Shown here one piece after another: positions 14,164-30,471 of a stretch of 64,000 bases of DNA. How positions within the stretch are numbered: position 1 is the first letter of the stretch; every line of letters begins with the position of its first letter. Both the position numbers and the translations under genes were made by a program. Under the pieces are notes generated by a model, which saw only the letters and a list, made by a program, of their open reading frames with translations, made no database searches and had not been told where the DNA came from. This DNA is from a virus (taxonomy: Duplodnaviria > Caudoviricetes). The DNA lies in IMG/VR virus record IMGVR_UViG_3300024284_000007, positions 1 to 64,000 of that record; one strand, written 5' to 3'.

Positions 14164-14597
14164 TGACGAAGCTGTGGATTTTCGACGTGGACGGGACGCT
14201 TGCCCTCATGGACGGGCGCAAGCCCTATGACTGGTCCCGGGTCAGCGAGGACAAGCCGAATATCCCGGTGCTGACAGTAGCCGCTGCACTGATCATGGAC
14301 GGGCACGAGCTGGGATTCGTCACCGGGCGGATGGAGCAGTGCCGTGACGATACCCGGGACTGGCTCTCGGATAACATCGACGTGCACTCTCCCTGGCTGG
14401 ACCGGCACCTGAAGCGGCTGTGGATGCGCCCCGACGACGACTACCGCCCCGACGAGATCATCAAGCGGGAACTTTACGAGACTCAGATCGCCCCGCATTA
14501 CGACGTCCAGGGCGTCTTCGATGACCGGGCTAAGGTCGTGAAGGGATGGAGGACCCTGGGGCTTACGTGCTTCCAGGTCGCGGAGGGAGATTTCTGA
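14163..14597 (+). CDS. HAD phosphatase resembling the Pnkp (PseT) 3'-phosphatase domain
   Basis: FDVDGTLA, FVTGR, LWMRP.DDYRPD..IK, VFDDR..VV..WR.LGL.CFQV. Confidence 0.88.
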   Translation: MTKLWIFDVDGTLALMDGRKPYDWSRVSEDKPNIPVLTVAAALIMDGHELGFVTGRMEQCRDDTRDWLSDNIDVHSPWLDRHLKRLWMRPDDDYRPDEIIKRELYETQIAPHYDVQGVFDDRAKVVKGWRTLGLTCFQVAEGDF

Positions 14598-17901: not shown

Positions 17902-18312
17902 ATGCATTTTCTCGCGTTTAACGCGCTTCACATGGTCCACGCCGCCCACCCGGGCACGTTCAAGATCTTCGGGTGGACCGCCCCCGCCCTGCTAGGGCAG
18001 GTCCTGCACTGGATCGCCAGGCTGTTCAAGATCCTGGCGATCAGCATCTCGTTCCTGCTGCTGTTCACCCGGGGATTCACCTCCACGGGAGGATGGCGGC
18101 TCATCCAGATGCTCTTCCTGGTGATCATCGGGCTGATCGGGCTGCCGAGCATCACCTCCAAGATCCAGCAGTGGCTCGGAAACATCACCAAGGGAGCCGC
18201 CATCGGGTCAACCGGCGCTTCCATCTGGATCGTGGTGATCCTGTCCGTGATCCTGGGACTGACCATCTTCTCCACGATCATCCGCAACCCCGCCCAGAGC
18301 GGTGAGGTGTGA
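17902..18312 (+). CDS. Multi-TM membrane protein
   Basis: Three hydrophobic segments. Confidence 0.65.
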   Translation: MHFLAFNALHMVHAAHPGTFKIFGWTAPALLGQVLHWIARLFKILAISISFLLLFTRGFTSTGGWRLIQMLFLVIIGLIGLPSITSKIQQWLGNITKGAAIGSTGASIWIVVILSVILGLTIFSTIIRNPAQSGEV

Positions 18313-18542
18313 GCGGGGAAGTCGGCAGGAAATCCGGCAGGCAGGTCAGCATCGGACCGGATTTCCGCAAGCTGAAGACCCCGCTGATCCTGACAGCGGC
18401 AACCGTCTTGCTGGTCATCGATGAATCCCGCTGGCATCTCCTGCGGCACGCTTTCGGCGCGTCCAGCAGCATCGTCGTGGTCGCCGTGGTCATCATCTGG
18501 ATGATCTGGGGCATCCGCAGGTACCGCAGGCGGGGGAAGTGA
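18309..18542 (+). CDS. Small membrane protein
   Basis: Two hydrophobic segments and a basic tail. Confidence 0.6.
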   Translation: MSGEVGRKSGRQVSIGPDFRKLKTPLILTAATVLLVIDESRWHLLRHAFGASSSIVVVAVVIIWMIWGIRRYRRRGK

Positions 18543-18674
18543 CATGAACCTCGCCGGGAAATGCCAGGGCGTCTTCCACTGCCATTCACTGTCTGCATGG
18601 AGCACTAACGATACGGTCGTCGCGGTGATTGTCGTAATCGTGCTGCTGGTCATTGTGGTGGCCAAAAGAGCAAG

Positions 18675-18704
18675 TTGACGTTCCCCCGCACGATGATGTA
18701 CTAT
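18675..18704 (+). promoter_or_regulatory. sigma70-type promoter heading the tRNA array
   Basis: TTGACG-18-TACTAT. Confidence 0.7.
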
Positions 18705-18881
18705 CATACGCATGACTACGCATGCCGCCATCCAGCGAGGGACCTCGCTACCGTGGCACGCGTTCAAGCAGCCTGAAGACCTCTCCGGGTAGACCTGAGG
18801 GAAAACCCGGGGAGGCTCTCCAGCAAAAACAGGAAACTGGTTGCGGGAGAGCCTTTCTCGTTGATACAACTGAAAACACAT

Positions 18882-18953
18882 GGGGGCGATGCCAACGGTA
18901 CGGTCGCCGGATTCCAACCCCGAGCTGTGAGGGTTCAACTCCTTCCGCCCCTG
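18882..18953 (+). tRNA. tRNA-Trp(CCA), imperfect anticodon stem
   Basis: GGGGGCG/CGCCCCT acceptor, G73, loop TTCCAAC, T-loop TTCAACT. Confidence 0.65.
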
Positions 18954-19070
18954 CGGAGCACCACCTCCTCGGAGGGTAATGTGCATGCGGGACAGGACTG
19001 CAAAGGACCTGTTCCATTAAAAACTGCATTGCTTTGAAACAGGCCGGGAGGTAATCTGCTCCCGGTCCAT

Positions 19071-19140
19071 GGGGACGACGCTCGGTAGCGGGCGCGCTTT
19101 GCAAGCGTTGCTGAAGTGGGGTCAGCACCCACCGTTTCCA
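19071..19140 (+). tRNA. tRNA-Ala(TGC), atypical T-loop GTCAGCA
   Basis: G3:U70, A73, loop TTTGCAA, T-stem GTGGG/CCCAC. Confidence 0.7.
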
Positions 19141-19389: not shown

Positions 19390-19459
19390 GCCCCTGTCGT
19401 TCAAGACAGGATATCTCTGGCAAAGGAGAAGATGGGGGTACCGAATCCTCCCAGGGGCT
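19390..19459 (+). tRNA. tRNA-like gene with a Thr(GGT)-type body but an irregular anticodon loop (TGGCAAA); identity uncertain
   Basis: GCCCCTG/CAGGGGC acceptor, U73, TCTCT/GGAGA stem, 8-nt T-loop TACCGAAT. Confidence 0.55.
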
Positions 19460-19490
19460 CATTACTCCCCGCCGAGCTGGCGGGGCTTTT

Positions 19491-19561
19491 CTCCGGATCG
19501 TCTAAGCGAGGATGCCGCCCTGATAAGGCGGAGATGGCGGTACCGAATCCGTCGCCGGGGG
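19491..19561 (+). tRNA. tRNA-Ile(GAT), atypical 8-nt T-loop
   Basis: CCGCC-CTGATAA-GGCGG; T-loop TACCGAAT. Confidence 0.6.
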
Positions 19562-19566
19562 CTGAT

Positions 19567-19639
19567 GGGGCTATAGCTCAGCTGGAAGAGCACCTCCATG
19601 GCATGGAGGGGGTCCGGGGTTCGAGTCCCCGTCGCTCCA
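19567..19639 (+). tRNA. tRNA-Ala(GGC)
   Basis: Canonical host-like cloverleaf, G3:U70. Confidence 0.95.
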
Positions 19640-19779
19640 CGAAGGGGTGATGAGAATGAAGCGGAAGTCTTTCAACAGGCTCATGATGGGTGTCATGCTT
19701 GCTTTCATGCTTGGCGTGATACTGCTCTGGGCATTCTTTCCCCCGTGGCGTGTTCGCTGACAAGGGAAGTGAATGAAAG

Positions 19780-19917
19780 ATGATGATAGGGCATGTCTAC
19801 ATCAATGTCGTCTATGTCTGGGAAGCCTTTGCCATCGTGGCTGGGATACCTGCGGGGGTACTCCTCTACGCCATCAGGCGCAAGCGCCGGAAGCAGATCG
19901 GCGATTTATCATGGTGA
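19780..19917 (+). CDS. Single-TM microprotein with in-frame TTA two codons before the stop
   Basis: MMIGHVYINVVYVWEAFAIVAGIPAGVLLYAIRRKRRKQIGD-L(TTA)-SW*. Confidence 0.55.
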   Translation: MMIGHVYINVVYVWEAFAIVAGIPAGVLLYAIRRKRRKQIGDLSW

Positions 19918-20065
19918 CGTTCGTCATCATCGCAGCATTGAGTATCGCATTCATCCTCGTCATGTGGGGGATCGGGCGCAACCGAGACCGAGGAAGACGG
20001 TAATCCGCAGGTTCATCGAATGGATGAAGCTTTCTAAGCGGGACTACCGAGCCCGTGTTAAACTC

Positions 20066-20137
20066 CGGCTTATCGCGTAAGGGTGAGCGCGCCTGTCTCG
20101 GGGACAGGCAGACCAAGTTCGAGTCTTGGTAAGCCGA
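20066..20137 (+). tRNA. tRNA-Pro(CGG)
   Basis: C1-G72, A73, CCTGT-CTCGGGG-ACAGG. Confidence 0.85.
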
Positions 20138-20140
20138 CGA

Positions 20141-20211
20141 GAAGAGAGATGGGGGTTCGAATCCTCCCCTGCCTCATTGAGGCAGGTAGCTTAAGCGGCA
20201 GAGCGCTCTTC
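20141..20211 (+). tRNA. Circularly permuted tRNA gene (3' half precedes 5' half); identity unclear
   Basis: GAAGAG-AGAT-GGGGG TTCGAAT CCTCC-CCTGCCTC-att-GAGGCAGG-TA-GCTT AAGCGGCA GAGC-G-CTCTTC; all four stems pair. Confidence 0.75.
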
Positions 20212-20217
20212 GGTAAT

Positions 20218-20288
20218 CCGGATGTAGTGAAATGGCATCACGCCGTGCCTGGGACGCGGTAGCGGAGGTCCGATTCCTCCCATCTGGA
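20218..20288 (+). tRNA. tRNA-Pro(TGG)
   Basis: CCGGATG/CATCTGG, CCGTG-CCTGGGA-CGCGG. Confidence 0.8.
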
Positions 20289-20450
20289 CGAGGGTTTGCT
20301 GGACGGCATGACCCTACTATGATGCGCATGAAATGATCGGTGCCCGGGAAGAGGACAAGGCCGAACCCGTGCACAGGCTGCGGATGCTGCGCCGTCCCGG
20401 CAGTCCATCTTGAGGAACAGTGATCCCGTATTCGCGTACGGGATCACCTA

Positions 20451-20524
20451 GGTCACTTAGCTCAGCTGGCAAGAGCGCCCGGTTGAAGCCCGGGAGGTCT
20501 TCTGTTCGATTCAGAAAGTGATCA
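20451..20524 (+). tRNA. tRNA-Phe(GAA)
   Basis: Canonical cloverleaf. Confidence 0.92.
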
Positions 20525-20543
20525 CGGCACTATCCCTCTTCAT

Positions 20544-20615
20544 GCGGGTATGGTCTAATGGCTATGACCTCAGCCTTCCAAGCTGATGGTGCGAGTTCGA
20601 TTCTCGCTACCCGTT
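20544..20615 (+). tRNA. tRNA-Gly(TCC)
   Basis: Canonical, U73. Confidence 0.92.
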
Positions 20616-20768
20616 CGCAGTAAGAAAGGATTGCCGTGAAATTCTCACGATGCAAGACTTGCAAGAGGCTGATATCCCGGAAAACCGCCCAGCGCTATTC
20701 CGGGATATGCGGTAAATGCTTCAGGAAAAGTATCTCTTCTCTCGCGAGAAAAATGATTGGTTGACTAT

Positions 20769-20840
20769 CAGGCTGTAGTTCAGCGGGAAGAACGTCGGCT
20801 CGGGGAGCCGGAGGTCGCAGGTTCGAGCCCTGCCAGCTTG
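20769..20840 (+). tRNA. tRNA-Pro-type gene with a 6-nt anticodon loop (TCGGGA)
   Basis: CAGGCTG/CAGCTTG, A73, TCGGC/GCCGG stem. Confidence 0.65.
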
Positions 20841-21023
20841 ACGTGAGAACATGCGTGCACTGCAAGCGCAGCCGCTTCCGGCGGCTGATGGTCCGGTCTA
20901 GCCTGTCCGGGAGCAAGTGGCGCTGCAGGAACGTGCAGGCTTGCGCCAGGTACATAACAAGGAAAAAATAGCAATCCGAGGAGATCATCATGCGAAAGCG
21001 GAACCAGCCCCGAAAGCCTTAAT

Positions 21024-21095
21024 GCTCCGGTAGCTCAGTGGCAGAGCGGCTGGCTCTTAACCAGCGCGTCGCGAGTCCGATTCTCGCTCGGAGTA
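21024..21095 (+). tRNA. tRNA-Lys(CTT)
   Basis: GCTGG-CTCTTAA-CCAGC. Confidence 0.92.
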
Positions 21096-21207
21096 CGAAG
21101 GAAGAATGATGGCTGTATGCCCTAACTGCGGCGGTACCAAGAAACCCGGCAAGACCTGCCCGAGATGCGGAGCAAATCATGAGTAAACCGGACCTGCTTA
21201 AAGGCAG

Positions 21208-21279
21208 GCTCCCCTAGCATAGTGGCCATGCGTTCGACTTTTAATCGAAAAGAGCGGGGTTCGATTCCCCGGGGGAGTA
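21208..21279 (+). tRNA. tRNA-Lys(TTT)
   Basis: TTCGA-CTTTTAA-TCGAA. Confidence 0.9.
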
Positions 21280-21436
21280 CAGTAAGCGAATGCCGGAAAT
21301 AATGTGCCCGAAATGCAAGGGAACGAAGAGATACCGGGGACGCCCGTGCAAGAAGTGCTCGCCGAAGGATAAGGACGGGAAGATCACCGGTCTCCCGCTC
21401 GGAAAGATCTGGGTAGACATGGGCAGCGGAAGCTAA

Positions 21437-21511
21437 GGGCGTCTACGCCAACAGGCAGCAGCGGCTAGCTTCAAAAGCTAGTGGTTCAGGGTTCGAATCC
21501 CTGGTCGCCTA
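21437..21511 (+). tRNA. tRNA-Leu(CAA), short variable region
   Basis: CTAGC-TTCAAAA-GCTAG, A73. Confidence 0.8.
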
Positions 21512-21524
21512 CGGAAGTAAATGA

Positions 21525-21597
21525 TCTCGGGTGGGATGCGGGCATCCCAGCATGGCTCTGAACCATGCCCCCGTTGGTTCGAATCCAGCCCCGAGAG
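21525..21597 (+). tRNA. tRNA-Gln(CTG)
   Basis: U1-A72, G73, CATGG-CTCTGAA-CCATG. Confidence 0.88.
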
Positions 21598-21631
21598 CGA
21601 TCCCAGCTTGCCGGAAGCTAGCTGGGCTCAT

Positions 21632-21700
21632 GCCTGTCGCGTCGGCACGCATCTGTCCCTCGTAGCGACAGATCACCCGGATCGTCCCCGGGGACGGGCT
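21632..21700 (+). tRNA. tRNA-Thr(CGT) with non-canonical cloverleaf
   Basis: GCCTGTC/GACGGGC, U73; GCGT-CGGC-ACGC; ATCTGTCC-CTCGTAG-CGACAGAT; CCCGG-ATCGTCC-CCGGG. Confidence 0.75.
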
Positions 21701-21711
21701 CGGAAGGGAGA

Positions 21712-21993
21712 ATGATGGATACACGCGAACTGATCCTGAAGACCGTGGAGGACCTGGCTGAGGACTTCCTCGGGATAGACCGCCTGGAAGACGCCGAGCT
21801 GCCTCCTGGGGCGACCGAGCGGGCGGTCCTGGACTGGGAGACCAGCATCGGGGAGATTGCTCTCCGGTTTGAGCAGAAGCTCCGCGAGCTGATCCCCGTA
21901 CCCGTCGATGAGCCTGGTGCCCACGTCGGGCAGGCTGGTCATGTCGTCCGCGCGAAGAGGATCCATGCCCAGGTGGAGCAGATGCAGGGATAG
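21712..21993 (+). CDS. Hypothetical protein
   Basis: GGAG RBS; fills the gap between tRNAs. Confidence 0.6.
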   Translation: MMDTRELILKTVEDLAEDFLGIDRLEDAELPPGATERAVLDWETSIGEIALRFEQKLRELIPVPVDEPGAHVGQAGHVVRAKRIHAQVEQMQG

Positions 21994-22000
21994 GTTTCAT

Positions 22001-22074
22001 GCCCAGGTAGCCCAACGGCAGGAGGCACCACCTTGAGGAGGTGGGCAGTACGAGTTCGAATCTCGTTCTGGGTA
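22001..22074 (+). tRNA. tRNA-Leu(GAG), short variable region
   Basis: CCACC-TTGAGGA-GGTGG, A73. Confidence 0.85.
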
Positions 22075-22079
22075 CGGAA

Positions 22080-22146
22080 CGCCGGGAACGCAGCCACGGC
22101 TGGCGTGGTCGGCAGACGATCAGGGTTCGAGTCCTGATCCCGGCGG
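22080..22146 (+). ncRNA. tRNA-like element of unclear identity
   Basis: 8-bp CGCCGGGA/TCCCGGCG stem, T-arm with GTTCGAGT, no canonical anticodon arm. Confidence 0.5.
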
Positions 22147-22150
22147 GAGC

Positions 22151-22218
22151 GCCGCTACTCACGGCTGTGGCTCCGGTCTTGTACACCGGGTGAGACGGGT
22201 CGGCACCGTCTGGCGGCT
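22151..22218 (+). tRNA. tRNA-Thr(TGT), minimal D-arm, T-loop GTCGGCA
   Basis: GCCGCTA/TGGCGGC, CCGGT-CTTGTAC-ACCGG. Confidence 0.75.
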
Positions 22219-22361
22219 CGGGAGGAAGGAAGAAAGATGACGCTCATTTTCACCCTGAAATGCTGCGCTCCTCGCGGAGAGCCGTGCCGCTGCGCTAATC
22301 CGTGCCGCAGAGGACGATTCGGACGCCGCTGCAGGTGTCCCGGATGTCATTAGAGTTTCAT

Positions 22362-22433
22362 TGCGGGGTGGGGTAACGGCAGCCCGCGTGCCTTTGAAGC
22401 ACTGTAGTGCGCGTCCGAATCGCGCCCCCGCAG
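22362..22433 (+). tRNA. tRNA-Gln(TTG)
   Basis: U1-A72, G73, loop CTTTGAA. Confidence 0.85.
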
Positions 22434-22651
22434 CAGGTTGTCTCAAGTGAACGGGAAGGTACATGCCACGGCACGGAGGAAACACGCTGCGCCCTTGCAG
22501 GCGGCATCACAAGAAGATGTCGTCAGGCTCTAAAGGCAACGGCGGGGACGCCAAGATCCGCAAGGCGAAGCAGGTCGCCGGGGAGGCGGCTCACCCCAAG
22601 CCCCGGAAGAAGAACGGCAAGGAAGAGTTCGAGCCTACGTGAGCAGGTCAT

Positions 22652-22720
22652 GCCCTTCGGACCGGCGTCCACGCCTCCTTGGTATGGAGGCGTAGCCCGG
22701 ATCGTCCCCGGGGAAGGGCT
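22652..22720 (+). tRNA. tRNA-Thr(GGT) with non-canonical cloverleaf
   Basis: GCCCTTC/GAAGGGC, U73; GGAC-CGGC-GTCC; ACGCCTCC-TTGGTAT-GGAGGCGT; CCCGG-ATCGTCC-CCGGG. Confidence 0.8.
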
Positions 22721-22804
22721 CAAGAGATGCCGGTCATCCATCTCCTTACCGCGAGTCACCAGGTAGCCAGTCCTGTTCAGGCGTCCAGCGGGTATGATGA
22801 CCAT

Positions 22805-22877
22805 GTGACCGTGGTGTCAGCGGTTAGCATCTGACCTTGCCAAGGTCAGGGGGCGAGTTCGAGTCTCGTCGGTCACT
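22805..22877 (+). tRNA. tRNA-Gly(GCC)
   Basis: TGACC-TTGCCAA-GGTCA. Confidence 0.9.
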
Positions 22878-23002
22878 CTAGCTAGTAGCCCAGCATGAAG
22901 CTTATGGCGACATGCCCCTGAGGGGAAGCGCGGACTGCTAGCCTAGGCGGGACAACACCGGGCGTCGGCGCACCCACAAAGCCGTCCGCTGGTGTCCCTC
23001 AT

Positions 23003-23073
23003 GCGGCTATGGTGTAGAGGTAACATGCGATCTTCCCAAGCTCGTGTCGCGGGTCCGATTCCCGCTAGCCGCT
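23003..23073 (+). tRNA. tRNA-Gly(CCC)
   Basis: Loop TTCCCAA, U73. Confidence 0.88.
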
Positions 23074-23222
23074 CGGAGATGTGCACGATCTCCCGGGAAA
23101 GCTCAGCGCAATACCAGGCAGTCGATTGCGGCAGCCCACTCGCCTGTGAGCGTGCTGAAGTGAAAAGGAATGGGAGCTGTCGTCGCTATTCCCGGAAGCG
23201 GAAGTCAGGGATTTCCCGTCAT

Positions 23223-23307
23223 GCGCGGGTGGTGTAACGGTAGCCACGCACGGCTCAGACCCGTGTGGTCCGGAAGGATCGTGAGGGTTCAACTCCCTCC
23301 TCGCGTA
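23223..23307 (+). tRNA. tRNA-Leu(CAG), long variable arm
   Basis: CACGG-CTCAGAC-CCGTG. Confidence 0.9.
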
Positions 23308-23308
23308 C

Positions 23309-23704
23309 GTGGATAACGTCAAGCAGGTCATCGTCATCAGGAGAGACCTGAAAATGCGCAGGGGCAAGGAGATTGCCCAGGGTGCTCACGCTTCGATCGC
23401 CTGGCTGACTAACAGGATCACGAATTCTTCCAATGCTCTCATGTCGGTTACGCCAGCGGATTTCTCTGCAGCGGAATGGGAATGGCTTCGGGGGAATTTC
23501 CGCAAGATCTGCTGCGTTGTCAGTTCCGAGCAGGAGCTGCTCGACCTGTGTGATGCAGCGAAGGAAGCGGATCTGATCTATGAGCTGATCGAGGACTCTG
23601 GACTGACTGAGTTCAGCGGGGTTCCCACGTTCACCGCAGCGGCATTCGGTCCTGACTTCGATGAGAACCTGGATCCCATTACGGGTCATCTGGTACTCTA
23701 CTGA
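23309..23704 (+). CDS. pth2: Peptidyl-tRNA hydrolase, Pth2 family
   Basis: KQVIVIRRDLKMRRGKEIAQGAHAS...KIC.VV...L...I.DSGLTEF..PT.TA.AFGP...D.ITGHL.LY. Confidence 0.92.
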   Translation: MDNVKQVIVIRRDLKMRRGKEIAQGAHASIAWLTNRITNSSNALMSVTPADFSAAEWEWLRGNFRKICCVVSSEQELLDLCDAAKEADLIYELIEDSGLTEFSGVPTFTAAAFGPDFDENLDPITGHLVLY

Positions 23705-23793
23705 CATGCTCCAAGAAGAAGTCGGCAGGGCGTCGCTGGCGTGACCCTGCTAGTCCGGGCGGATAATAAGTCCTGGGGTAGAGCGCCAGCAAT

Positions 23794-23877
23794 GGAGAGT
23801 GAACGAGCCAGGGTGCTCGGCCTTCCTGCTAAGAAGTGCGCGGGTGATACCGTGGATTTCGAGTATCCCGCTCTCCT
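23794..23877 (+). tRNA. tRNA-Ser(GCT)
   Basis: GGAGAGT/GCTCTCC, loop CTGCTAA, long variable arm. Confidence 0.75.
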
Positions 23878-23878
23878 C

Positions 23879-24223
23879 ATGGCTAAGGAACTCGCGTTCT
23901 CGGTAACCCGCAAGGACCTGAAGATCGAGACTTTTTCTGCGGGCGGACCGGGAGGACAGCATCAGAACACCTCCAACACGGCGGTGCGCATCACGCACCT
24001 CGCGTCAGGGGCGTCAGGAGTGGCGAGAGACTCCCGCAGCCAGCATCAGAACATGAAGAACGCCCTGCGCCGCATGGCGGAATCGGGTAAGTTCAGGGTG
24101 TGGGTGAACCGGCAGCTGCTGGGGAATACCGAGCCGCCGGAGATTGCTGTACAGCGGCAGATGCACCCCTCGAACCTGCTGATCATGGGCAGGGAGGAGG
24201 GGAGATGGAAGATCATCGACTAG
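23879..24223 (+). CDS. Class I release-factor GGQ-domain protein (ArfB/PrfH-like, domain 3 only)
   Basis: IETFSAGGPGGQHQNTSNTAVRITHLASG...DSRSQHQN. Confidence 0.88.
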   Translation: MAKELAFSVTRKDLKIETFSAGGPGGQHQNTSNTAVRITHLASGASGVARDSRSQHQNMKNALRRMAESGKFRVWVNRQLLGNTEPPEIAVQRQMHPSNLLIMGREEGRWKIID

Positions 24224-24232
24224 GAAGAGACG

Positions 24233-24659
24233 ATGAAGAGATTCATGAAAGCAGGACCTCATCCTGCCGTGGGGATCCCGGTCATGACCCTCTGCGGGAT
24301 CGGGGGGATCCTGGAGCTGAGCGACAAGGGTCATTTCACCTTGTTCGGCAAGGTCATCCAGTCGCATGACGCCGCTGTCTTCGCGGTCATCGCCAGCGCC
24401 GGGTACCTTCTGCTGGAGCTGGTCTTGCTAGCCAGGAGGCACTGACATGGGGTGGCTTGCCTTCCTGGTCGTAAGCTCTGTCGCGGTCTTCGCGCTGATG
24501 AAATACGCGGGCAGCAATCGCAGGGCGGCGAAAGTGATCAAGGGGAAAGGGCGCTCATCTCCCCGGATCTGCCCTGACTGTCGCGAGCCGGCGGGCAAAT
24601 GCCAGTACCTGCGCCGTCAGGCTGAGCACCCTGGGGGCATGCTCGGGAAGAAGAAGTAA
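24233..24659 (+). CDS. Two small membrane proteins (24233..24445, 24447..24659)
   Basis: Hydrophobic segments; RBS present. Confidence 0.55.
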
Positions 24660-24664
24660 CTCAC

Positions 24665-24751
24665 GGAGAGTTCGCCTAGAGGCTTAGGGCGCTGCCTTGG
24701 AAAGGCAGTAAGGTGAAATATCCTTCACGAGTTCGAATCTCGTACTCTCCT
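24665..24751 (+). tRNA. tRNA-Ser(GGA)
   Basis: CTGCC-TTGGAAA-GGCAG, long variable arm. Confidence 0.88.
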
Positions 24752-24790
24752 CCGGGGATTAAGCCAGTCAGGGAGCTGGCATCCCCTTCT

Positions 24791-24872
24791 CGGGAGCATG
24801 CTACCGGCGTAGCGCTCCGCCTCGAAAGCGGATACGGGGTAACACCCGGGGGATCGACACCTCTGCTCTCGG
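24791..24872 (+). tRNA. tRNA-Ser(CGA), reduced D-arm, T-loop ATCGACA
   Basis: TCCGC-CTCGAAA-GCGGA, variable arm, G73. Confidence 0.72.
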
Positions 24873-24893
24873 CGCAGAATAGAAAGAAGGAAC

Positions 24894-25136
24894 ATGCCCG
24901 ACAGGAAGAAATGCCCGGCCTGCGGAACGATGATGCACCGGTTCATGAACCCTGAGCGGTATGTCTGCCCTAAAGAGAACACTCACGCAGCTCTTCTCGC
25001 CGAGAAGAGAAGGGCTGAAGGGCGTTCCCGGGGCGGAAAAGCCGCTCAGGCTAAGCGAGCTGCGTCTGGTCGCCAGCGGGAATGGGCGCGGATACTCGGG
25101 AAGAGATTCGGGGGGAAGAACAAGAAGAGCAAGTAA
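24894..25136 (+). CDS. Small basic Zn-ribbon protein
   Basis: CPACG...YVCP; RBS AAGGA. Confidence 0.55.
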   Translation: MPDRKKCPACGTMMHRFMNPERYVCPKENTHAALLAEKRRAEGRSRGGKAAQAKRAASGRQREWARILGKRFGGKNKKSK

Positions 25137-25142
25137 CATCAT

Positions 25143-25216
25143 GGGCATCAGTTCACCTGGTCGGTGGACTCACGCTGATAACGTGATCGCGCAGGGTTCG
25201 ATTCCCTGGGTGCCTA
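25143..25216 (+). tRNA. tRNA-Ile(GAT)
   Basis: TCACG-CTGATAA-CGTGA. Confidence 0.85.
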
Positions 25217-25217
25217 C

Positions 25218-25290
25218 GCCGCAGTAGCCTAACGGTCAGGGCAACTGTCTTATGAACAGCAGATTCCAGGTTCAAGTCCTGGCTGCGGTA
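25218..25290 (+). tRNA. tRNA with UAU anticodon (nominal Ile) on a Leu-like body
   Basis: Loop CTTATGA (G37), GCCGCAG/CTGCGGT, A73, D-region GCCTAACGGTCAGGGC. Confidence 0.75.
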
Positions 25291-25415
25291 CGGGAGGTAT
25301 CATGCTGACAGGAAGCTGGAATCCTCACGACGAGGATGACGAGAATCTCGTGCTGGATGTCGAGTGGGTCTTCATTCGCGGAGGAAAGTACGTTTACTCG
25401 GTGAGAGCCGAGAAT

Positions 25416-25489
25416 GCCCCTGTAGCTTAAAGGACAAAGCGGCTGGCTTCTATCCGGTCCAGATCCGGGTTCGAATCCTGGCAGGGGTG
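25416..25489 (+). tRNA. tRNA-Arg(TCT)
   Basis: Loop CTTCTAT, canonical arms. Confidence 0.85.
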
Positions 25490-25490
25490 C

Positions 25491-25562
25491 GCTCCATTGG
25501 GGAAACGGTATCCCGCCAGCCCCTCAAGCTGGAGATCCCCGGGTCGGCACCGGGATGGAGCA
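25491..25562 (+). tRNA. tRNA-Glu(CTC), T-loop GTCGGCA
   Basis: CCAGC-CCCTCAA-GCTGG. Confidence 0.75.
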
Positions 25563-25724
25563 CGGAGAAAAGATGAGAGAAAGAATGTCCAGCCAGTGTA
25601 CCGCTGCCCCAAAGGCGGTCTTCATCACTGGAAGCGCACTATCACGATTACCGCGATCCTGCGCCTGCGCATCTTCCACGCGCGGTGCACGAAATGCGGC
25701 GGGTATCCTCAGAAGAGGTAACAT

Positions 25725-25796
25725 GCTCTCATCGTCTATGGGATAGGATCTGATCCTTTCAAGATCGGGAACGGAGTTCGAGTCTCCGTGGGAGCA
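25725..25796 (+). tRNA. tRNA-Glu(TTC)
   Basis: TGATC-CTTTCAA-GATCG. Confidence 0.88.
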
Positions 25797-25811
25797 CGGG
25801 AAGGGAAGAAG

Positions 25812-26012
25812 ATGCCGCTCAGCGAGGATGAGCAGGATGCCATGGCAGCCAACTGCCCCTGGTGCTGGGCGGGGATGGGTGAGCGCTGCAAGAGCCGCAG
25901 CGGGAAAGAGCGCCTGCACCCGCATAAACGGCGGATCGCGCGCGCGCGGCGGCGCGGAGGTCTCGGCGGGGTGGGCAGGATGCTGCTGGCGGCGAGAAGG
26001 GGAAGCAAGTGA
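25812..26012 (+). CDS. Small phage zinc-finger protein
   Basis: CPWCWAGMGERC.....H..R. Confidence 0.6.
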   Translation: MPLSEDEQDAMAANCPWCWAGMGERCKSRSGKERLHPHKRRIARARRRGGLGGVGRMLLAARRGSK

Positions 26013-26028
26013 GTAACGGGAAATTCTA

Positions 26029-26065
26029 GCCTGCATGGTGAACTGGCTATCACATCATGTGATAA
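26029..26065 (+). pseudogene. Orphan tRNA 5' half
   Basis: GCCTGCA-TG-GTGA ACTGGCTA TCAC-A-TCATG..., no T-arm or 3' acceptor strand. Confidence 0.45.
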
Positions 26066-26074
26066 ACTAGTCGT

Positions 26075-26147
26075 GGCGACTAAGCTCACTGGTGTGAGCG
26101 GCACCCTCATAAAGTGCACGAGGTGGGTCCGATTCCCGCAGTCGCTA
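26075..26147 (+). tRNA. tRNA-Met/Ile2(CAT), elongator type
   Basis: GCACC-CTCATAA-AGTGC. Confidence 0.85.
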
Positions 26148-26148
26148 C

Positions 26149-26580
26149 GTGGGGAAACCGTATGATCCTGAATATTACCGAAAGTGGCAAGAGGAACGCC
26201 GCATTAAGTTCCTGGCGATAGCTAAAGAACGCCTTGGAGGATGCTGTGTTCGTTGTGGTACTACCGAAAATCTTCAGTTCGATCATATTATTCCAGGTTC
26301 CAGGATTCGTGCGATATCATCAGCAACTAATTGGTCGCTAGCTCGCTTTCTTGCCGAAGTGGACAAATGTCAGCTTCTTTGCGATGCGCATCATCGTGAA
26401 AAATCAAAGGAATGCGGAGAGCAAGGCGGAGGCTGGAATCGTATCGATAACCCAGAACACGGAACAGAGATTTGCTATACACGTGGGTGTCGTTGCGAAC
26501 CATGTCGTCAAGCCCGGCACGACGTGCGGGTAAGACGAGGTGAACTCAATGGCACGCGAGGACATTACAAAAAATCTTGA
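26149..26580 (+). CDS. HNH endonuclease (tRNA-array paralog 1)
   Basis: LGGCCVRCG...LQFDHI.P...EVDKCQLLC..HH; low GC. Confidence 0.88.
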   Translation: MGKPYDPEYYRKWQEERRIKFLAIAKERLGGCCVRCGTTENLQFDHIIPGSRIRAISSATNWSLARFLAEVDKCQLLCDAHHREKSKECGEQGGGWNRIDNPEHGTEICYTRGCRCEPCRQARHDVRVRRGELNGTRGHYKKS

Positions 26581-26606
26581 CATCTCCTCTTCGGAGGAGG
26601 TAAGGT
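26577..26606 (+). promoter_or_regulatory. sigma70-type promoter
   Basis: TTGACA-18-TAAGGT just upstream of tRNA-fMet. Confidence 0.75.
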
Positions 26607-26617
26607 AGATCTACCGA

Positions 26618-26691
26618 CGCGGAGTAGAGCAGCTTGGCAGCTCGGTGGGCTCATAACCCTCAGGTCGCGGGTTCGAATCCCGTCTCCGCTA
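26618..26691 (+). tRNA. Initiator tRNA-fMet(CAT)
   Basis: C1:U72 mismatch, GGG/CCC anticodon-stem pairs. Confidence 0.92.
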
Positions 26692-26721
26692 CCGGTCCCG
26701 ACAGGACCCTAAAGAGTCTAT

Positions 26722-26794
26722 TGGCCTCTAGCTTAACTGGCAGAGTCGCTCCCTGTTAAGGAGTTAGGTCCCGGTTCGAATCCGGGGGGGTCAG
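26722..26794 (+). tRNA. tRNA-Asn(GTT)
   Basis: U1-A72, G73, GCTCC-CTGTTAA-GGAGT. Confidence 0.88.
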
Positions 26795-26919
26795 CGGGAT
26801 GCAGGTGCACGCGATAAACTGGCTTACCTGCGCCTGGCAGATCAGCGCCCTACCCAGGGGGTGCCTCAGACGGAGACAGCGGGTCACGTACGTCCCAGTC
26901 CCCGCCGAGCTGATCACGT

Positions 26920-26975
26920 GGTTCTGTAGCTTAGCTGGTCTAAAGCACCGCCCTGTCAAGGCGGAGGTCAACGGG
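26920..26975 (+). pseudogene. Truncated tRNA-Asp(GTC): T-arm and 3' acceptor strand lost, directly upstream of an HNH gene
   Basis: Intact D-arm and CCGCC-CTGTCAA-GGCGG, then sequence diverges. Confidence 0.75.
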
Positions 26976-26991
26976 CTGATAAGATGACCGG

Positions 26992-27408
26992 GTGCCTTAC
27001 AGGGATCCTGATCGCCAGCGCGAGTATCAACGTCAGTGGGTAGCTAGTCGGCGTGCTGCATGGTTCAAGGATAAATCTTGCGTGATATGCGGGAGTGCCG
27101 AAGATTTGGAACTGGATCATCTTGATCCGGGCAAGAAAGTAAGCCATCGCATCTGGTCATGGTCAGCAACGCGACGCGAAGCTGAACTGCTTAAATGCAG
27201 GGTTCTTTGCGGTAGTCACCATAAAGAAAAATCTGCACTGGAGCATGCAAAAGGTATCGCGAACGGGACGGCGAAGCTAACTGAAGAGCAAGTCCGAGAA
27301 ATTCGTTCTTCAGGAATGGGTCACCGACCCGCCGCTAGGGTGTATGATGTAAATGAAAAAACCATCCGGTTGATCCGGAAGGGTAAAATCTGGGGTTCCG
27401 TGGTGTAA
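26992..27408 (+). CDS. HNH endonuclease (paralog 2) with C-terminal HTH-like tail
   Basis: CVICGS...LELDHLDP...ELLKCRVLC..HH, AKLTEEQVREIR; last codons overlap tRNA-Asp. Confidence 0.88.
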   Translation: MPYRDPDRQREYQRQWVASRRAAWFKDKSCVICGSAEDLELDHLDPGKKVSHRIWSWSATRREAELLKCRVLCGSHHKEKSALEHAKGIANGTAKLTEEQVREIRSSGMGHRPAARVYDVNEKTIRLIRKGKIWGSVV

Positions 27409-27466
27409 AGGTTAGCACACTACCCTGTCAAGGTAGAGGTGGGGGTTCGACTTCCCCTCGGTTCCG
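27394..27466 (+). tRNA. tRNA-Asp(GTC)
   Basis: CTACC-CTGTCAA-GGTAG; two U:U mismatches in the acceptor stem. Confidence 0.8.
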
Positions 27467-27568
27467 CTGGAGGCGTTCATGTGACGCTCATGTGGTACGA
27501 GATGCCGGAGACTGGCATCCTTCCCCGGGGGGTATCCTGGAGGGAGCTGGCGGATCACTGGCTGACCC

Positions 27569-27953
27569 ATGATCCGCTTCCGGAAAGAAGAGATGATGAT
27601 AAGCATGTGCGGGTCGAGTGTCCCGCTGTGGGAATTCCTGGCAGGGATACTGTGCGGACTGGTACTCTCGGTAACCCTGATACGCCTGTTCAAGCTGTAC
27701 GGGCTCCTGATCTGCCTGCTTATCATCATCGCGGGAGCTATCATTGTTAAGACAGCATTCATCAGGTACGGATGCTGACATGTCATTCGACGGGCAGGAC
27801 TATCCCTGGCTCCACCTGTGGATGCTGTCAGCAGTGCCGCTGGTGACATTCGCGGCAGGGGCGCTGTCCTGTAAGATCCTGGGGAAGTGGACCTGGCTGC
27901 TCATCGGGCTGGGAGTCCTGCTGCTGGTCATCCTGCGGGCAGCTGGAGGGTAG
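27569..27953 (+). CDS. Two small two-TM proteins (about 27569..27778 and 27780..27953)
   Basis: Strongly hydrophobic ORFs; starts uncertain. Confidence 0.55.
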
Positions 27954-28067
27954 ATGGCGATAAACAGGAAGTGCCTGGCATGCAGGTGGAACAGCCGCCT
28001 GCTGCGCTGCAGCTGCACCTACCGGTGCTCTGCGCTATGGTGCAAGGGCAGGGGAGTGAAAATATAG

Positions 28068-28140
28068 GGACGCTTAGCTCAGCGGTATGAGCGCTGCCCT
28101 GACACGGCAGAGGGCGGCGGTTCGATCCCGTCAGCGTTCA
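28068..28140 (+). tRNA. tRNA-Val(GAC)
   Basis: CTGCC-CTGACAC-GGCAG. Confidence 0.92.
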
Positions 28141-28143
28141 CTC

Positions 28144-28377
28144 GGCTGGAAGAAAAGGCTGCTAGCGAGCCGGATCTTCCCGCGCCGGGGATAGAGACCC
28201 GGCTCCGGCGGCAGACGTGCCGTGCGTTCCATGAGCACATGGGCAGCTGGACCAAGGGGATGAATGGTTCGACCGGGCTGCAAGACCGCATGCGGAACAG
28301 CCCGGGACCAGGGCTCGGTACCCTGCATCTCCACTGCCGGGGGTTAAGCGGCGCAAGCCTCAAACCCCCGGCGTCCA
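28144..28377 (+). ncRNA. Unassigned highly structured RNA between tRNA-Val and tRNA-Arg
   Basis: Nested perfect stems (CCGGGCTG/CAGCCCGG, GCCGGGGGTT/AACCCCCGGC, GCCGGA/TCCGGC, GGGGATG/CATCTCC) and a GCAA tetraloop. Confidence 0.55.
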
Positions 28378-28449
28378 GCCCCCATGGTGAAAGGGATATC
28401 ATGGGAGATTACGAATCTCCCGGTGCCTGTTCGAGTCAGGCTGGGGGTG
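28378..28449 (+). tRNA. tRNA-Arg(ACG)
   Basis: GGAGA-TTACGAA-TCTCC. Confidence 0.88.
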
Positions 28450-28463
28450 CGGAAAGGAAGAGA

Positions 28464-28670
28464 ATGAAGGCACTGAAGCCGCGTCCGGCAAAACGCGGGT
28501 ACGTCATCATCGGGGGACTGTCAGTACTGGCGGTGTGGGCATGCACGCAGGCTCTCCACGTCACTCCGCTGGTAGCCCTGGTCATCGTCGTCGCGGGCAT
28601 AATCCTGCTCGCGGGAGCATTCTCCCTGCGTTCCCGGGGAATTAACCGGGAGGTGAAACGCAGGAGATAA
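28464..28670 (+). CDS. Small two-TM protein
   Basis: MKALKPRPAKRGYVIIGGLSVLAVW...; RBS AAGGAAG. Confidence 0.55.
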   Translation: MKALKPRPAKRGYVIIGGLSVLAVWACTQALHVTPLVALVIVVAGIILLAGAFSLRSRGINREVKRRR

Positions 28671-28741
28671 GGGCGGCTCGTCCAATGGGAGGGCCTCTGC
28701 GTTACGAGCAGAAGACAAGGGTTCGATTCCTTTGCCGCCTA
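28671..28741 (+). tRNA. tRNA-Val(TAC)
   Basis: TCTGC-GTTACGA-GCAGA. Confidence 0.85.
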
Positions 28742-28742
28742 C

Positions 28743-28896
28743 GGGAATGAGAGAGGGTACGGCAGGGCTACTCAGGGAGTCCGGGTGCGTGCCATCCAGA
28801 GGAGTCCGAAGACGGCAGGACGGTTCCTGAGTCTGTCCTGCTTGCTTGACGGATCGCTCTCACCGAGCCCAGGGTCGTGGGCAGCTCTCATTCTCC
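28743..28896 (+). ncRNA. Unassigned structured RNA between tRNA-Val and tRNA-His
   Basis: Closing stem GAATGAGAG/CTCTCATTC and inner ACTCAGGGA/TTCCTGAGT, GTCC/GGAC, GGGTG/CATCC. Confidence 0.5.
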
Positions 28897-28898
28897 AT

Positions 28899-28973
28899 GG
28901 CGGATATAGCTCAATGGCAGAGCGCTGGCTTGTGGTGCCGGTAATCCGAGTTCAATCCTCGGTATTCGCCCCA
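28899..28973 (+). tRNA. tRNA-His(GTG)
   Basis: G-1:C73, loop TTGTGGT, encoded CCA. Confidence 0.92.
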
Positions 28974-29221
28974 CGCGATCATCCGGAAAGGGTATCATGA
29001 AGATATTCAGGCGCAGGAAGAAGCGCAGTCAGGTGAAATGCTTCATCTGCCATACTCGTACGCCCCCAGAGGGCGCAGCTGTCTGCGCGCACTGCCTGAA
29101 GCACAATATCAGGATGAGGAGTACGCAATGAGAAGTTATTATCCGGGTCAGCATAGCTGTCACTGACCCTGCCGGATCTTGCACTGGGATGCTTTGTGGT
29201 AAGGTATGATATAGTAAAACT

Positions 29222-29818
29222 ATGAACTATACCGCAGAGCAGATGCGAGAGTACCAGAACCGGAGGCGTGAAGCTCTTCGCGCCGAATTGCGCCTGTTGC
29301 TCGGCGGGAAATGTGCTCGTTGTGGCAAGACTGAGGATCTTGAATTTGATCATATAGATCCAAAAACAAAACTTTTCTCGATAGCAAATGGACTGGATAA
29401 GCCGCGTGCTGTTCTTTTGCAAGAAGTGGAAAAATGCCAGCTTCTTTGCACGCCTCACCATATCGAGAAAAACTCCGAAGATGGAACACGTGTCCGAGGA
29501 GAACGACAGTGGAAAGCAAAGCTCACTGTTGCCGATGTCCAGAGTATCAGGGCATCAACTCTTCATTATCGCGAACTGATGAAAATTTATGATATTACCA
29601 AGGCTCATGTATTCGCTATTCGCAGACGTGCGGCTTGGAAGCATGTAGACTTATCCTTGCCAGGGTACTCAAGCGGCCAACGAGATCTGACTGTAAATCA
29701 GATGGCATCGTCCTTCCTAGGTTCGACTCCTAGTCCTGGTACATGTATAACACAGCAAATAAATACGAATTCCCCAATAACACCGAAGTCTGGACCTATG
29801 AGATCATTGCCTATATGA
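29222..29818 (+). CDS. HNH endonuclease (paralog 3); domain ends at WKHVD, then TTA (29651-29653), and the ORF runs on through tRNA-Tyr
   Basis: LGGKCARCG...LEFDHIDP...EVEKCQLLC..HH, AKLTVADV..IR...WKHV. Confidence 0.85.
   Translation: MNYTAEQMREYQNRRREALRAELRLLLGGKCARCGKTEDLEFDHIDPKTKLFSIANGLDKPRAVLLQEVEKCQLLCTPHHIEKNSEDGTRVRGERQWKAKLTVADVQSIRASTLHYRELMKIYDITKAHVFAIRRRAAWKHVDLSLPGYSSGQRDLTVNQMASSFLGSTPSPGTCITQQINTNSPITPKSGPMRSLPI
29659..29741 (+). tRNA. tRNA-Tyr(GTA)
   Basis: TCTGA-CTGTAAA-TCAGA, variable arm. Confidence 0.92.
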
Positions 29819-29973
29819 TCACCGAAGGTAAGACTAGAGCTAGCGTCACTCTCGGATTCTATGGTGAATTGCGCGCTTCCGGAACTGGTGCAATCGTCGG
29901 GAAAGATGTTGGCGATACTGAGCAGCAGGTGATCCTCAAGCTTATCGGTACTGAGGATATCCAAAAGCTCTAA
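29743..29973 (+). CDS. Hypothetical low-GC protein
   Basis: 76-aa ORF. Confidence 0.5.
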   Translation: MYNTANKYEFPNNTEVWTYEIIAYMITEGKTRASVTLGFYGELRASGTGAIVGKDVGDTEQQVILKLIGTEDIQKL

Positions 29974-29985
29974 GGGGAACGTGCA

Positions 29986-30014
29986 GCAGGTTCGATTCCT
30001 GCATCCGGTACCCA
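29986..30014 (+). pseudogene. Orphan tRNA 3' half (T-arm plus acceptor strand)
   Basis: GCAGG TTCGATT CCTGC-ATCCGGT-A-CCCA with no D or anticodon arm upstream. Confidence 0.6.
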
Positions 30015-30299
30015 TTCGCCGATTAAGGACCGACATGAAGACCATTGCCATTCTCCCTTCCGAATGCCATACGATGATGCTCGGCATGCGGCTGTGCGTG
30101 GTATGCTGCCATGCATGCCGGAGGGGATTCCGGTGCGACTGCTGCAGGAGGATGAGAGAAGATGCTTAACGAGCTAGCCGCGACAGGGCATTCCGCCGGG
30201 TTCACTATCGGCGCGATAGTGCTCGGGGCGATCTGCGTCATCATCATCGTGGTGCTGCTGGTCATGACCCGCAAGCGGCGCGGGAAGAAATAAAGTAAT

Positions 30300-30369
30300 G
30301 CCCCCGGTAGCGGATTCTTCCACTGGGTTTCCGAAATCCGGATGCCGTGTTCGACTCACGGCGGGGGTG
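30300..30369 (+). tRNA. tRNA-Arg(CCG), degenerate D-arm
   Basis: GCCCCCG/CGGGGGT, loop TTCCGAA. Confidence 0.7.
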
Positions 30370-30375
30370 CTATGT

Positions 30376-30450
30376 GACGCTGTGGCGAAGATGGCATAAC
30401 GTGCACGTCTGCAAAACGTGTATTCGCGGGTTCGAGTCCCGCCAGCGTCT
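30376..30450 (+). tRNA. tRNA-Cys(GCA)
   Basis: CACGT-CTGCAAA-ACGTG, U73. Confidence 0.92.
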
Positions 30451-30471
30451 CTGATTTCCGGTCTGTTTCAA

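Follow-up and report, generated by a model that had tools for sequence, protein, structure and literature searches.

Compact tRNA-Thr genes with a conserved, covarying non-canonical fold in tRNA arrays of actinobacterial phages and chromosomes

Three compact tRNA-Thr genes in a viral tRNA array

We analyzed the first 64 kb (hereafter the window) of an 87,379-bp IMG/VR virus record estimated to be 71% complete (IMGVR_UViG_3300024284_000007). Within a dense tRNA array on its plus strand lie three compact genes with threonine anticodons, tRNA-Thr(CGU) at 21632–21700 (69 nucleotides, nt), tRNA-Thr(UGU) at 22151–22218 (68 nt) and tRNA-Thr(GGU) at 22652–22720 (69 nt). A first-pass annotation of the sequence had described the CGU and GGU genes as sharing a non-canonical cloverleaf, and reading of the sequence, a positional scan and RNAfold all returned the layout that it had claimed. 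In both genes a 7-bp acceptor stem with G1-C72, C2-G71 and U73 leads, without a connector at positions 8 and 9, into a D stem of 4 bp that is capped by a CGGC tetraloop. The anticodon stem spans eight positions and closes a 7-nt loop in which U33 and A37 are present, the variable region is 2 nt long, and the T arm is identical between the two. The CGU gene reads GCCTGTC / GCGT-CGGC-ACGC / ATCTGTCC-CTCGTAG-CGACAGAT / CA / CCCGG-ATCGTCC-CCGGG / GACGGGC / T, with the acceptor strands at 21632–21638 and 21693–21699, the D arm at 21639–21650, the anticodon arm at 21651–21673 (anticodon CGT at 21661–21663), the variable region at 21674–21675, the T arm at 21676–21692 and U73 at 21700. The GGU gene, in which the anticodon stem is a perfect 8 bp, reads GCCCTTC / GGAC-CGGC-GTCC / ACGCCTCC-TTGGTAT-GGAGGCGT / AG / CCCGG-ATCGTCC-CCGGG / GAAGGGC / T, with the D arm at 22659–22670, the anticodon GGT at 22681–22683, the T arm at 22696–22712 and U73 at 22720.

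Scanning both strands of the window for this layout by position returned the CGU and GGU sites only, with no site in 30 Markov shuffles, and the minimum-energy structure from RNAfold was the proposed fold for both the CGU gene (−33.4 kcal/mol, z = −2.5) and the GGU gene (−42.1 kcal/mol, z = −3.5). We rejected a canonical alternative fold, because the 12 nt between the acceptor and the anticodon helix are too few for U8-N9 and a normal D arm. The T arm is the same in both genes, as claimed, while the reported loss of the TTC motif is only partial, in that U54 is absent but U55-C56 are kept (A-U-C-G...). The UGU gene was recovered by a descriptor scan and has the anticodon TGT at 22180–22182 and the T loop GTCGGCA; its D arm reads CTCA-CGGC-TGTG with one U·U when aligned with the family, and one connector nucleotide followed by TCAC-GGCT-GTGG when taken alone. 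Scores with the family covariance model R3 (see below) were 72.1 bits for the CGU gene, 66.6 bits for the UGU gene and 80.2 bits for the GGU gene.

The surrounding array (19390–30451) holds at least 37 tRNA genes with small open reading frames (ORFs) in between, at a density of ~3.3 tRNA genes per kb (34 genes called by ARAGORN and a few more by Rfam). It thereby falls within the definition of a tRNA array unit given in PMC4758250, that is, at least 20 tRNA genes at a density of at least 2 per kb. The TCAT leader that had been noted upstream of many of these genes is real, as it precedes 8 of the 37 tRNA genes in the window compared to a regional background of 0.6% per position. ARAGORN searches of the window and the whole 87-kb record returned no Thr gene besides the compact ones, which agrees with the proposal that compact genes supply otherwise missing threonine isoacceptors. 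That proposal had counted only two such genes, and with the compact UGU gene as a third, all three threonine anticodons of the phage are on compact genes.

The tRNA finders differed in how they treated these genes. The Rfam tRNA model RF00005 (gathering threshold 29 bits) gave no match over 21632–21700, 22151–22218 or 22652–22720 at E ≤ 10, and in the genome of Spirillospora sp. CA-294931, introduced below, it found 72 tRNAs and missed the compact one at 1420564–1420631. ARAGORN missed the CGU gene but called the GGU gene (22652–22721), so that the expectation that standard scanners would miss both genes held for the Rfam model and, for ARAGORN, in one case of the two. Relative to the canonical class I tRNA described by RF00005, the compact genes have the 7-bp acceptor stem, the discriminator, the 5-bp T stem with its 7-nt loop, and the 7-nt anticodon loop with U33 and a purine at position 37, and they lack the U8-N9 connector, the D loop of 7–11 nt, the 5-bp anticodon stem and the variable region of 4–5 nt.

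Conserved architecture and covariation across 68 distinct members

We searched for homologs with pattern scans of IMG/VR and with covariance models, the E-values of which are rough. A model built from the two window copies (R1), as the first-pass annotation had recommended, was too narrow and gave one good match in 50 records, while the later models R2 and R3 recovered the family. Simple patterns were not informative in IMG/VR, since the exact T-arm pattern gave 13 chance matches in coding DNA, none of them tRNA-like, and a pattern for the 5′ half gave 21 chance matches, none of which folded. A search for relatives with the ORF at 17928–18986 found none. The resulting set comprises 68 distinct members, including bacterial ones.

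Members are 68 nt (36/68) or 69 nt (29/68) long in most cases, and 66 of the 68 have no connector. The acceptor is fully paired (7/7) in 60 members, the D stem (4/4) in 64 and the T stem (5/5) in 67. The D loop has 4 nt in 56 members and 5 nt in nine, with CGGC as the most frequent sequence (47), followed by CGGCT (8), CGGT (5), CAGC (2) and CAAC (2). The anticodon helix is 7–9 bp long and incorporates position 26 along with most of the variable region, which leaves 0–3 unpaired nucleotides before the T stem and, in the member on contig L170 with its 9-bp helix, none. On the 3′ side the distance from the loop to the T stem is 9 or 10 nt, equal to that of a normal class I tRNA (5 + 4 or 5), such that two or three additional 5′ nucleotides in effect zip up the variable region. 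The T loop is GUCGGCA in 52/68 and the canonical UUCGAC- in 5/68, whereas the loop AUCGUCC occurs within the family only in the window CGU and GGU copies, and this private T arm suggests gene conversion between the two paralogs. Position 19:56 is G-C in 66/68 and A-U in 2/68, and both CAAC D loops, one from a phage and one from a bacterial metagenome-assembled genome (MAG), occur together with GGU.GCA T loops; this provides limited support for a retained elbow contact.

Covariation of the D stem and the long anticodon stem in homologs had been set beforehand as the test that could refute the fold, and both stems covary. In the ungapped alignment A6 (seven type-A sequences), 95.8% of cells were paired and 16 of 24 pairs had changed on both sides, compared to 37–52% pairing with slid partners; corresponding values were 97.5%, 10 of 23 and 31–49% in the ungapped alignment A5 (seven type-B sequences). 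In the alignment A9 (71 distinct rows), which like A8 was fitted to the model in a way that inflates pairing, 96.5% of cells were paired, 21 of 26 pairs had changed on both sides and slid partners reached 32–51%. None of 500 shuffles reached the observed pairing in A5, A6 or A9. All four D-stem pairs showed covariation in A6, and the outer anticodon-stem pairs held in 7/7 (21:41), 5/7 (22:40) and 6/7 (23:39) sequences, with a weak outermost pair (20:42, 4/7). On this comparative evidence, the covarying non-canonical fold is conserved and under selection.

Synteny and distribution in phages and actinobacteria

Relatives of the window phage were identified through a structural protein gene (59584–61566, PHROG 13692), which yielded 76 related viral contigs. 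Where these contigs include the array, the order Leu(CAA), Gln(CUG), Thr(CGU), Leu(GAG), Thr(UGU), Gln(UUG), Thr(GGU), Gly(GCC), Gly(CCC), Leu(CAG) is conserved. All three Thr genes are canonical, with lengths of 72–76 nt, in relatives G003, G009 and G012, while G007 is mixed, with canonical CGU and GGU genes and, at the UGU slot, a 69-nt gene that has the window layout but different stems (D arm TATC-CAAC-GATA, T loop GGTAGCA). The CGU gene of the window sits in the slot of the canonical Thr(CGU) gene of G003, G007, G009 and G012, and the UGU gene fills the Thr(UGU) slot between Leu(GAG) and Gln(UUG), as in relatives. Since syntenic slots are compact in some phages and canonical in others, the compact genes occupy ordinary tRNA-Thr slots. 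An ortholog of the GGU gene on contig L159 (12019–12087) has compensatory differences in the acceptor and the outer anticodon stem.

Compact Thr genes were present in 11 viral contigs, ten of which came from the pattern scans and covariance models, with all three Thr genes compact in L159 and L164, and in about 40 Actinomycetota contigs from a scan of one genome per prokaryotic species. Cultured carriers include Actinoallomurus iriomotensis, A. oryzae, A. acaciae, Actinomadura scrupuli, Actinomadura sp. 3N407, Trebonia kvetii and Spirillospora sp. CA-294931, the last with a compact Thr gene on a complete chromosome. Some of the bacterial contigs are metagenome bins that could be mis-binned phage DNA, but isolates and one complete chromosome also carry the family. 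Every bacterial compact gene lies inside a dense tRNA array with phage-like order. The arrays of Spirillospora and Actinomadura have ordinary flanking genes (fasciclin, short-chain dehydrogenase, LysR regulator, EamA transporter, DJ-1/PfpI protein and luciferase-like monooxygenase) and no phage gene within 3–4 kb, and the presence of compact Thr genes in chromosomal arrays indicates that these genes are not exclusive to phages. Among 150 further genomes sampled from the same order, we found one more match, which is a lower bound under the strict filters used. Judged by these genome comparisons, the family is accessory and patchy, like the tRNA array units of Mycobacterium and elsewhere.

BLAST against cultured phages matched canonical neighboring tRNAs only, in Streptomyces, Mycobacterium and Synechococcus phages, and model R3 on the Streptomyces phages Mildred21 and MulchMansion and the Mycobacterium phage Myrna returned only canonical Thr(CGU) genes of 73–75 nt, at 33–36 bits. 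For two viral contigs (L167:5738–5805, minus strand; L171:1812–1879), the retrieved locus contains one compact Thr(UGU) gene and no second tRNA.

Threonine identity and predicted function

The acceptor pairs G1-C72 and C2-G71 are identity elements for threonyl-tRNA synthetase (ThrRS), a rule that rests on PMC9976931 and on established work with E. coli and T. thermophilus. The first-pass annotation had pointed to C2-G71 and G35-U36 as such elements in the window genes, and both are borne out across the family. Acceptor ends are GCC...GGC (G1-C72, C2-G71, C3-G70) in 67/68 and U73 is found in 68/68, while acceptor pairs 4–7 vary freely. Anticodons are CGU (33), UGU (19) or GGU (11) in 63 of the 68 members by an automatic parse in which a few rows are mis-registered, and several of the remaining five are mis-registered Thr anticodons. 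U33 was found in 59/68 and A37 in 64/68. The stand-alone tRNA-Thr genes of Spirillospora have identical ends (G1-C72, C2-G71, C3-G70, U73), and TTCGA T loops in this host, the only one examined in this respect. CCA is encoded directly 3′ of 25/68 genes, where about one would be expected.

Among 47 array loci, in which canonical Thr genes were classed by ARAGORN call and length only, no Thr anticodon was present in compact and canonical form together, and each anticodon occurred once per array with one exception. Functional replacement of one form by the other predicts this complementarity. We consider it probable, on comparative grounds, that the compact genes are working tRNA-Thr genes that stand in for ordinary tRNA-Thr genes in a mobile type of array.

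Several observations weigh against this interpretation. Eight compact UGU members have C33 instead of the near-universal U33 (loop CCUGUAA or CCUGUAC), and this is conserved across several arrays (including, on the minus strand, L164:7951–8019, L186:7171–7238, L190:4324–4391 and L187:3804–3872, as well as L202:879–946). In the window CGU copy, the anticodon-stem pair that closes the loop is C:C, and an anticodon helix that extends 2–4 bp beyond the normal length could put the anticodon at the wrong place with respect to the CCA end. Hosts retain canonical tRNA-Thr genes for all three anticodons, as determined with the Rfam tRNA search followed by ARAGORN, so that compact copies are dispensable there. 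Part of the pairing evidence comes from the model-fitted A8 and A9, although the ungapped A5 and A6 were not fitted.

How a compact tRNA-Thr might work

In the mechanism we propose, host ThrRS would charge the compact tRNAs through the acceptor (G1-C72, C2-G71, C3-G70, U73) and G35-U36, and RNase P, the CCA enzyme, EF-Tu and the ribosome would meet an intact acceptor/T helix. Stacking of the extended anticodon helix on the D stem would compensate for the lost core layers, and two G of the D tetraloop would pair with U55-C56 of the T loop so that the L shape is kept, as in the pyrrolysine tRNA (tRNA-Pyl). The 8-bp anticodon helix and the 4-bp D stem amount to 12 stacked pairs, compared to the 5 + 1 + 4 pairs and three or four tertiary layers of a normal tRNA limb, such that limb length may be preserved. 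Outside the acceptor stem and the anticodon, no identity elements for threonine are known (PMC9976931), which leaves the core free to change and would explain why this isoacceptor family can lose it. In the 71%-complete phage record we found no match to PF00587 (tRNA-synt_2b, the class II core of ThrRS, prolyl- and seryl-tRNA synthetase type) and none to the CCA-adding enzyme family PF01743; pyrrolysyl-tRNA synthetase itself was not searched for.

Comparison with known tRNAs

The closest structural match among known tRNAs was tRNA-Pyl of the archaeal Methanomassiliicoccales, which like the compact Thr genes has a connector-less 4-bp D stem with a CGGC tetraloop, a lengthened and sometimes bulged anticodon stem and a variable region of at most 3 nt. 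The published tRNA-Pyl sequence of Ca. Methanomethylophilus alvus (M. alvus) has the D arm GGUC-CGGC-GACC without a connector; this is identical to the D arm of the member at L159:11861–11929 and has the same form as those of the window CGU and GGU genes (GCGU-CGGC-ACGC and GGAC-CGGC-GUCC). The compact genes thus have the core features of tRNA-Pyl, namely a connector of 0–1 nt, a small D loop, an elongated anticodon stem and a variable region of no more than 3 nt. They differ from tRNA-Pyl in having Thr anticodons rather than CUA, U73 rather than G73, the acceptor pairs G1-C72/C2-G71/C3-G70, an anticodon helix of 7–9 bp rather than 6 and a T loop that is mostly GUCGGCA, and in occurring in Actinomycetota and their phages. 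Because the anticodon and the discriminator differ, we regard the window genes as resembling tRNA-Pyl in fold and not as members of that family, and the likeness, known by fold rather than by sequence homology, may be convergent. M. alvus-type tRNA-Pyl is known to work with bacterial EF-Tu and ribosomes, and a hybrid of the tRNA-Pyl scaffold with archaeal tyrosine identity was charged by archaeal tyrosyl-tRNA synthetase and suppressed amber codons in E. coli (PMC6337575), which indicates that such a compact core is compatible with bacterial translation.

Mammalian mitochondrial tRNA-Ser(UCN), a type I mitochondrial tRNA, is similar in its shortened connector, small D loop, extended anticodon stem, 3-nt variable region and L shape, but has one connector nucleotide and a 6-bp stem, is organellar and has serine identity with a dedicated mitochondrial synthetase. 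Allo-tRNAs and tRNA-Sec-like tRNAs (Mukai 2017) are likewise natural bacterial tRNAs with non-canonical helix lengths that came from genome mining, but their acceptor/T helices are 8/4 or 9/3 and their variable arms are long, whereas the compact Thr genes keep 7/5 and are changed in the D, anticodon and variable parts. Defense-escaping phage tRNAs, such as the tRNA-Lys/Thr/Asn of T5 against the PARIS nuclease AriB and the anticodon-loop variants of mycobacteriophages, are phage-borne isoacceptors, including Thr(UGU), that are unlike host tRNAs and sustain translation; these retain a canonical cloverleaf and differ in a few bases where cleavage occurs, in contrast to the wholly rebuilt core of the compact Thr genes, which are candidate escape forms only. 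Long tRNA arrays (Tran 2016; Morgado and Vicente 2018; Santamaria-Gomez 2021) are similarly dense and patchy, hold 10–40 tRNA genes and are common to actinobacterial chromosomes, plasmids and phages. Structurally compact members are unmentioned in the abstracts of these papers and in the term matches within PMC8421152.

We found no description of a compact tRNA-Thr, or of such array genes, in the searchable literature on compact tRNAs of phages and actinobacteria or with sequence strings of the family. The first-pass annotation had proposed functional tRNAs of an undescribed structural class. Comparative evidence favors working tRNA-Thr genes, and the family, carried in arrays of soil actinobacterial phages and some actinobacteria, is large and apparently undescribed, but its hallmarks are those of tRNA-Pyl, and this precedent means that the fold itself is not wholly new. 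Should the compact tRNAs prove to be aminoacylated and active in translation, a tRNA-Pyl-type core would serve to decode one of the standard amino acids in bacteria and phages. The tRNA-Pyl scaffold would then be no one-off tied to pyrrolysine, the family would offer natural, diverse compact-scaffold sequences of interest for orthogonal tRNA design, and covariance-model tRNA finders would under-report such genes, with the consequence that arrays appear to lack Thr. As cultured strains carry the family, these predictions are directly testable.

Why the body is compact, and alternative explanations

Selection on the compact body could reflect resistance, to a nuclease or to a requirement for core modification that acts on the ordinary tRNA-Thr body, or the body could have arisen by neutral drift; we regard the two as about equally likely. 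Provided that the tRNAs function, drift is a tentative explanation, in which a compact body was tolerated because ThrRS ignores the core and then spread among Thr slots by duplication or gene conversion. The location of threonine identity elements outside the core (PMC9976931) is compatible with it, as are the occurrence of every mixture of compact and canonical Thr genes among relatives, the shared T arm of the window CGU and GGU genes, which departs from the family norm and suggests paralog conversion, and the presence of other relaxed tRNAs in the same arrays (Arg(CCG), Trp and Ala with reduced D arms). Drift would however be expected to leave scattered layouts, whereas one precise architecture with perfect helices and a conserved CGGC loop recurs in 68 distinct sequences from phages and several actinobacterial families.

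Again conditional on function, and by analogy with known phage–host conflicts, the compact body might tentatively be seen as an escape form with which threonine decoding continues under a host or rival nuclease or toxin that recognizes the body or anticodon stem of ordinary tRNA-Thr. AriB cuts tRNA-Thr(UGU) and tRNA-Thr(CGU) in the anticodon stem between positions 40 and 41, making these isoacceptors documented targets, and phage T5 tRNA variants rescue infection against it (PMC12409363). Evasion of anticodon nucleases by phage tRNAs is known (PMC10264068), and tRNA arrays are discussed as anti-defense elements in PMC12803027. An RNA-repair gene pair identified by Pfam matches also adjoins the array upstream (13417–14597, plus strand), consisting of an RlaP nucleotidyltransferase gene (13417–14163; PF10127, 82 bits) that overlaps a gene for a Pnkp-type HAD phosphatase (14070–14597; PF25109, 161 bits). 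Against an escape form, no tRNA-Thr-specific nuclease is known in actinobacteria, where none was looked for here, known escapes alter few loop or stem bases and leave the core untouched, the family is also found in bacterial chromosomes beside ordinary genes, and relatives with canonical Thr genes do well. We consider it unlikely, if worth stating, that actinobacterial phage and chromosomal arrays carry a structurally insulated Thr-decoding set, with tRNA-Pyl-like bodies that would fold without core modifications and be invisible to a nuclease or toxin disabling ordinary tRNA-Thr. Were this the case, remodeling of the whole tRNA core, beyond loop bases, would be a natural escape route in tRNA conflict, and the set would give a naturally occurring case in which a non-canonical tRNA fold decodes a standard amino acid in bacteria.

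The genes could instead encode tRNA mimics without a part in decoding, which would neither be charged nor take part in translation and might act as a decoy for a protein that binds tRNA-Thr or direct the processing of the array transcript. Several tRNA-shaped RNAs that are unable to decode do occur in this record and in related phages, such as the anticodon-less element at 22081–22145, and the Rfam tRNA model does not recognize the compact genes. Nevertheless, three Thr anticodons are kept in proper 7-nt loops, the identity pairs and U73 are invariant, CCA is encoded in 25/68 and the distribution is strictly complementary to that of canonical Thr genes; a processing signal would need none of these features, and we judge mimicry to be improbable compared to working tRNA-Thr genes. 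Decay of tRNA-Thr genes, which phage tRNA genes often undergo and for which the C:C mismatch in the CGU copy could be cited, is very improbable given compensatory changes in all four helices, 68 distinct members and invariant identity positions beside freely varying ones.

Other unusual tRNAs in the arrays

Compaction was also seen in a tRNA-Arg(CCG) gene located beside Cys(GCA), in the window (30300–30370) and in three other contigs (L119:13033–13101, minus strand; L149:2035–2103; L150:17826–17894). In this gene the connector is absent, the D stem measures 4 bp and carries a loop of 5 nt, and an anticodon stem of 7 bp is followed by 2 nt of variable region; the D arms covary (GTAA-CGGAT-TTAC vs. 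GTGA-CGGAC-TCGC). The window copy has a degenerate D stem and is the sole Arg(CCG) copy found by ARAGORN. Compaction is not limited to Thr, as a 68-nt tRNA-Trp(CCA) gene at L159:10929–10997 also shows: a single connector nucleotide precedes a D stem of 4 bp closed by a 3-nt loop, the anticodon stem measures 7 bp, and 2 nt of variable region lead to a T arm with the canonical loop TTCGAAC.

Within the window, a tRNA-Ala(UGC)-like gene at 19071–19140 has G3·U70, a small D arm (CGCT-CGGT-AGCG) and the T loop GTCAGCA, and was missed by both ARAGORN and Rfam. An otherwise canonical tRNA-Glu(CUC) gene (25491–25563) has the T loop GTCGGCA, with G54/G58 as in the compact Thr family, and a tRNA with a CAU anticodon at 26075–26147 scored 43.8 bits with Rfam and was absent from the ARAGORN calls. 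The 65-nt tRNA-shaped element at 22081–22145, between Leu(GAG) and Thr(UGU), has a 7-bp acceptor, an 8-bp stem with a 6-nt TTCGAG loop and no recognizable anticodon loop.

In related arrays, a tRNA-like 63-nt gene of locus L122 (G038:12233–12295) combines an Ile(GAU) anticodon arm and a normal T arm with an imperfect acceptor and about nine unpaired nucleotides in place of the D arm. ARAGORN reported four-base anticodons in relative G012 (‘tagg’, L154:12342–12417) and in an array of a Nocardiopsaceae MAG (‘gagc’, L218:2080–2153). Anticodons with A34, which are unusual in bacteria, also occurred in the arrays, for His(AUG), Tyr(AUA), Val(AAC) and Ser(AGA) (L166:368–441, L199:4116–4186, L188:1999–2073, L196:6864–6935 and L164:8403–8477).

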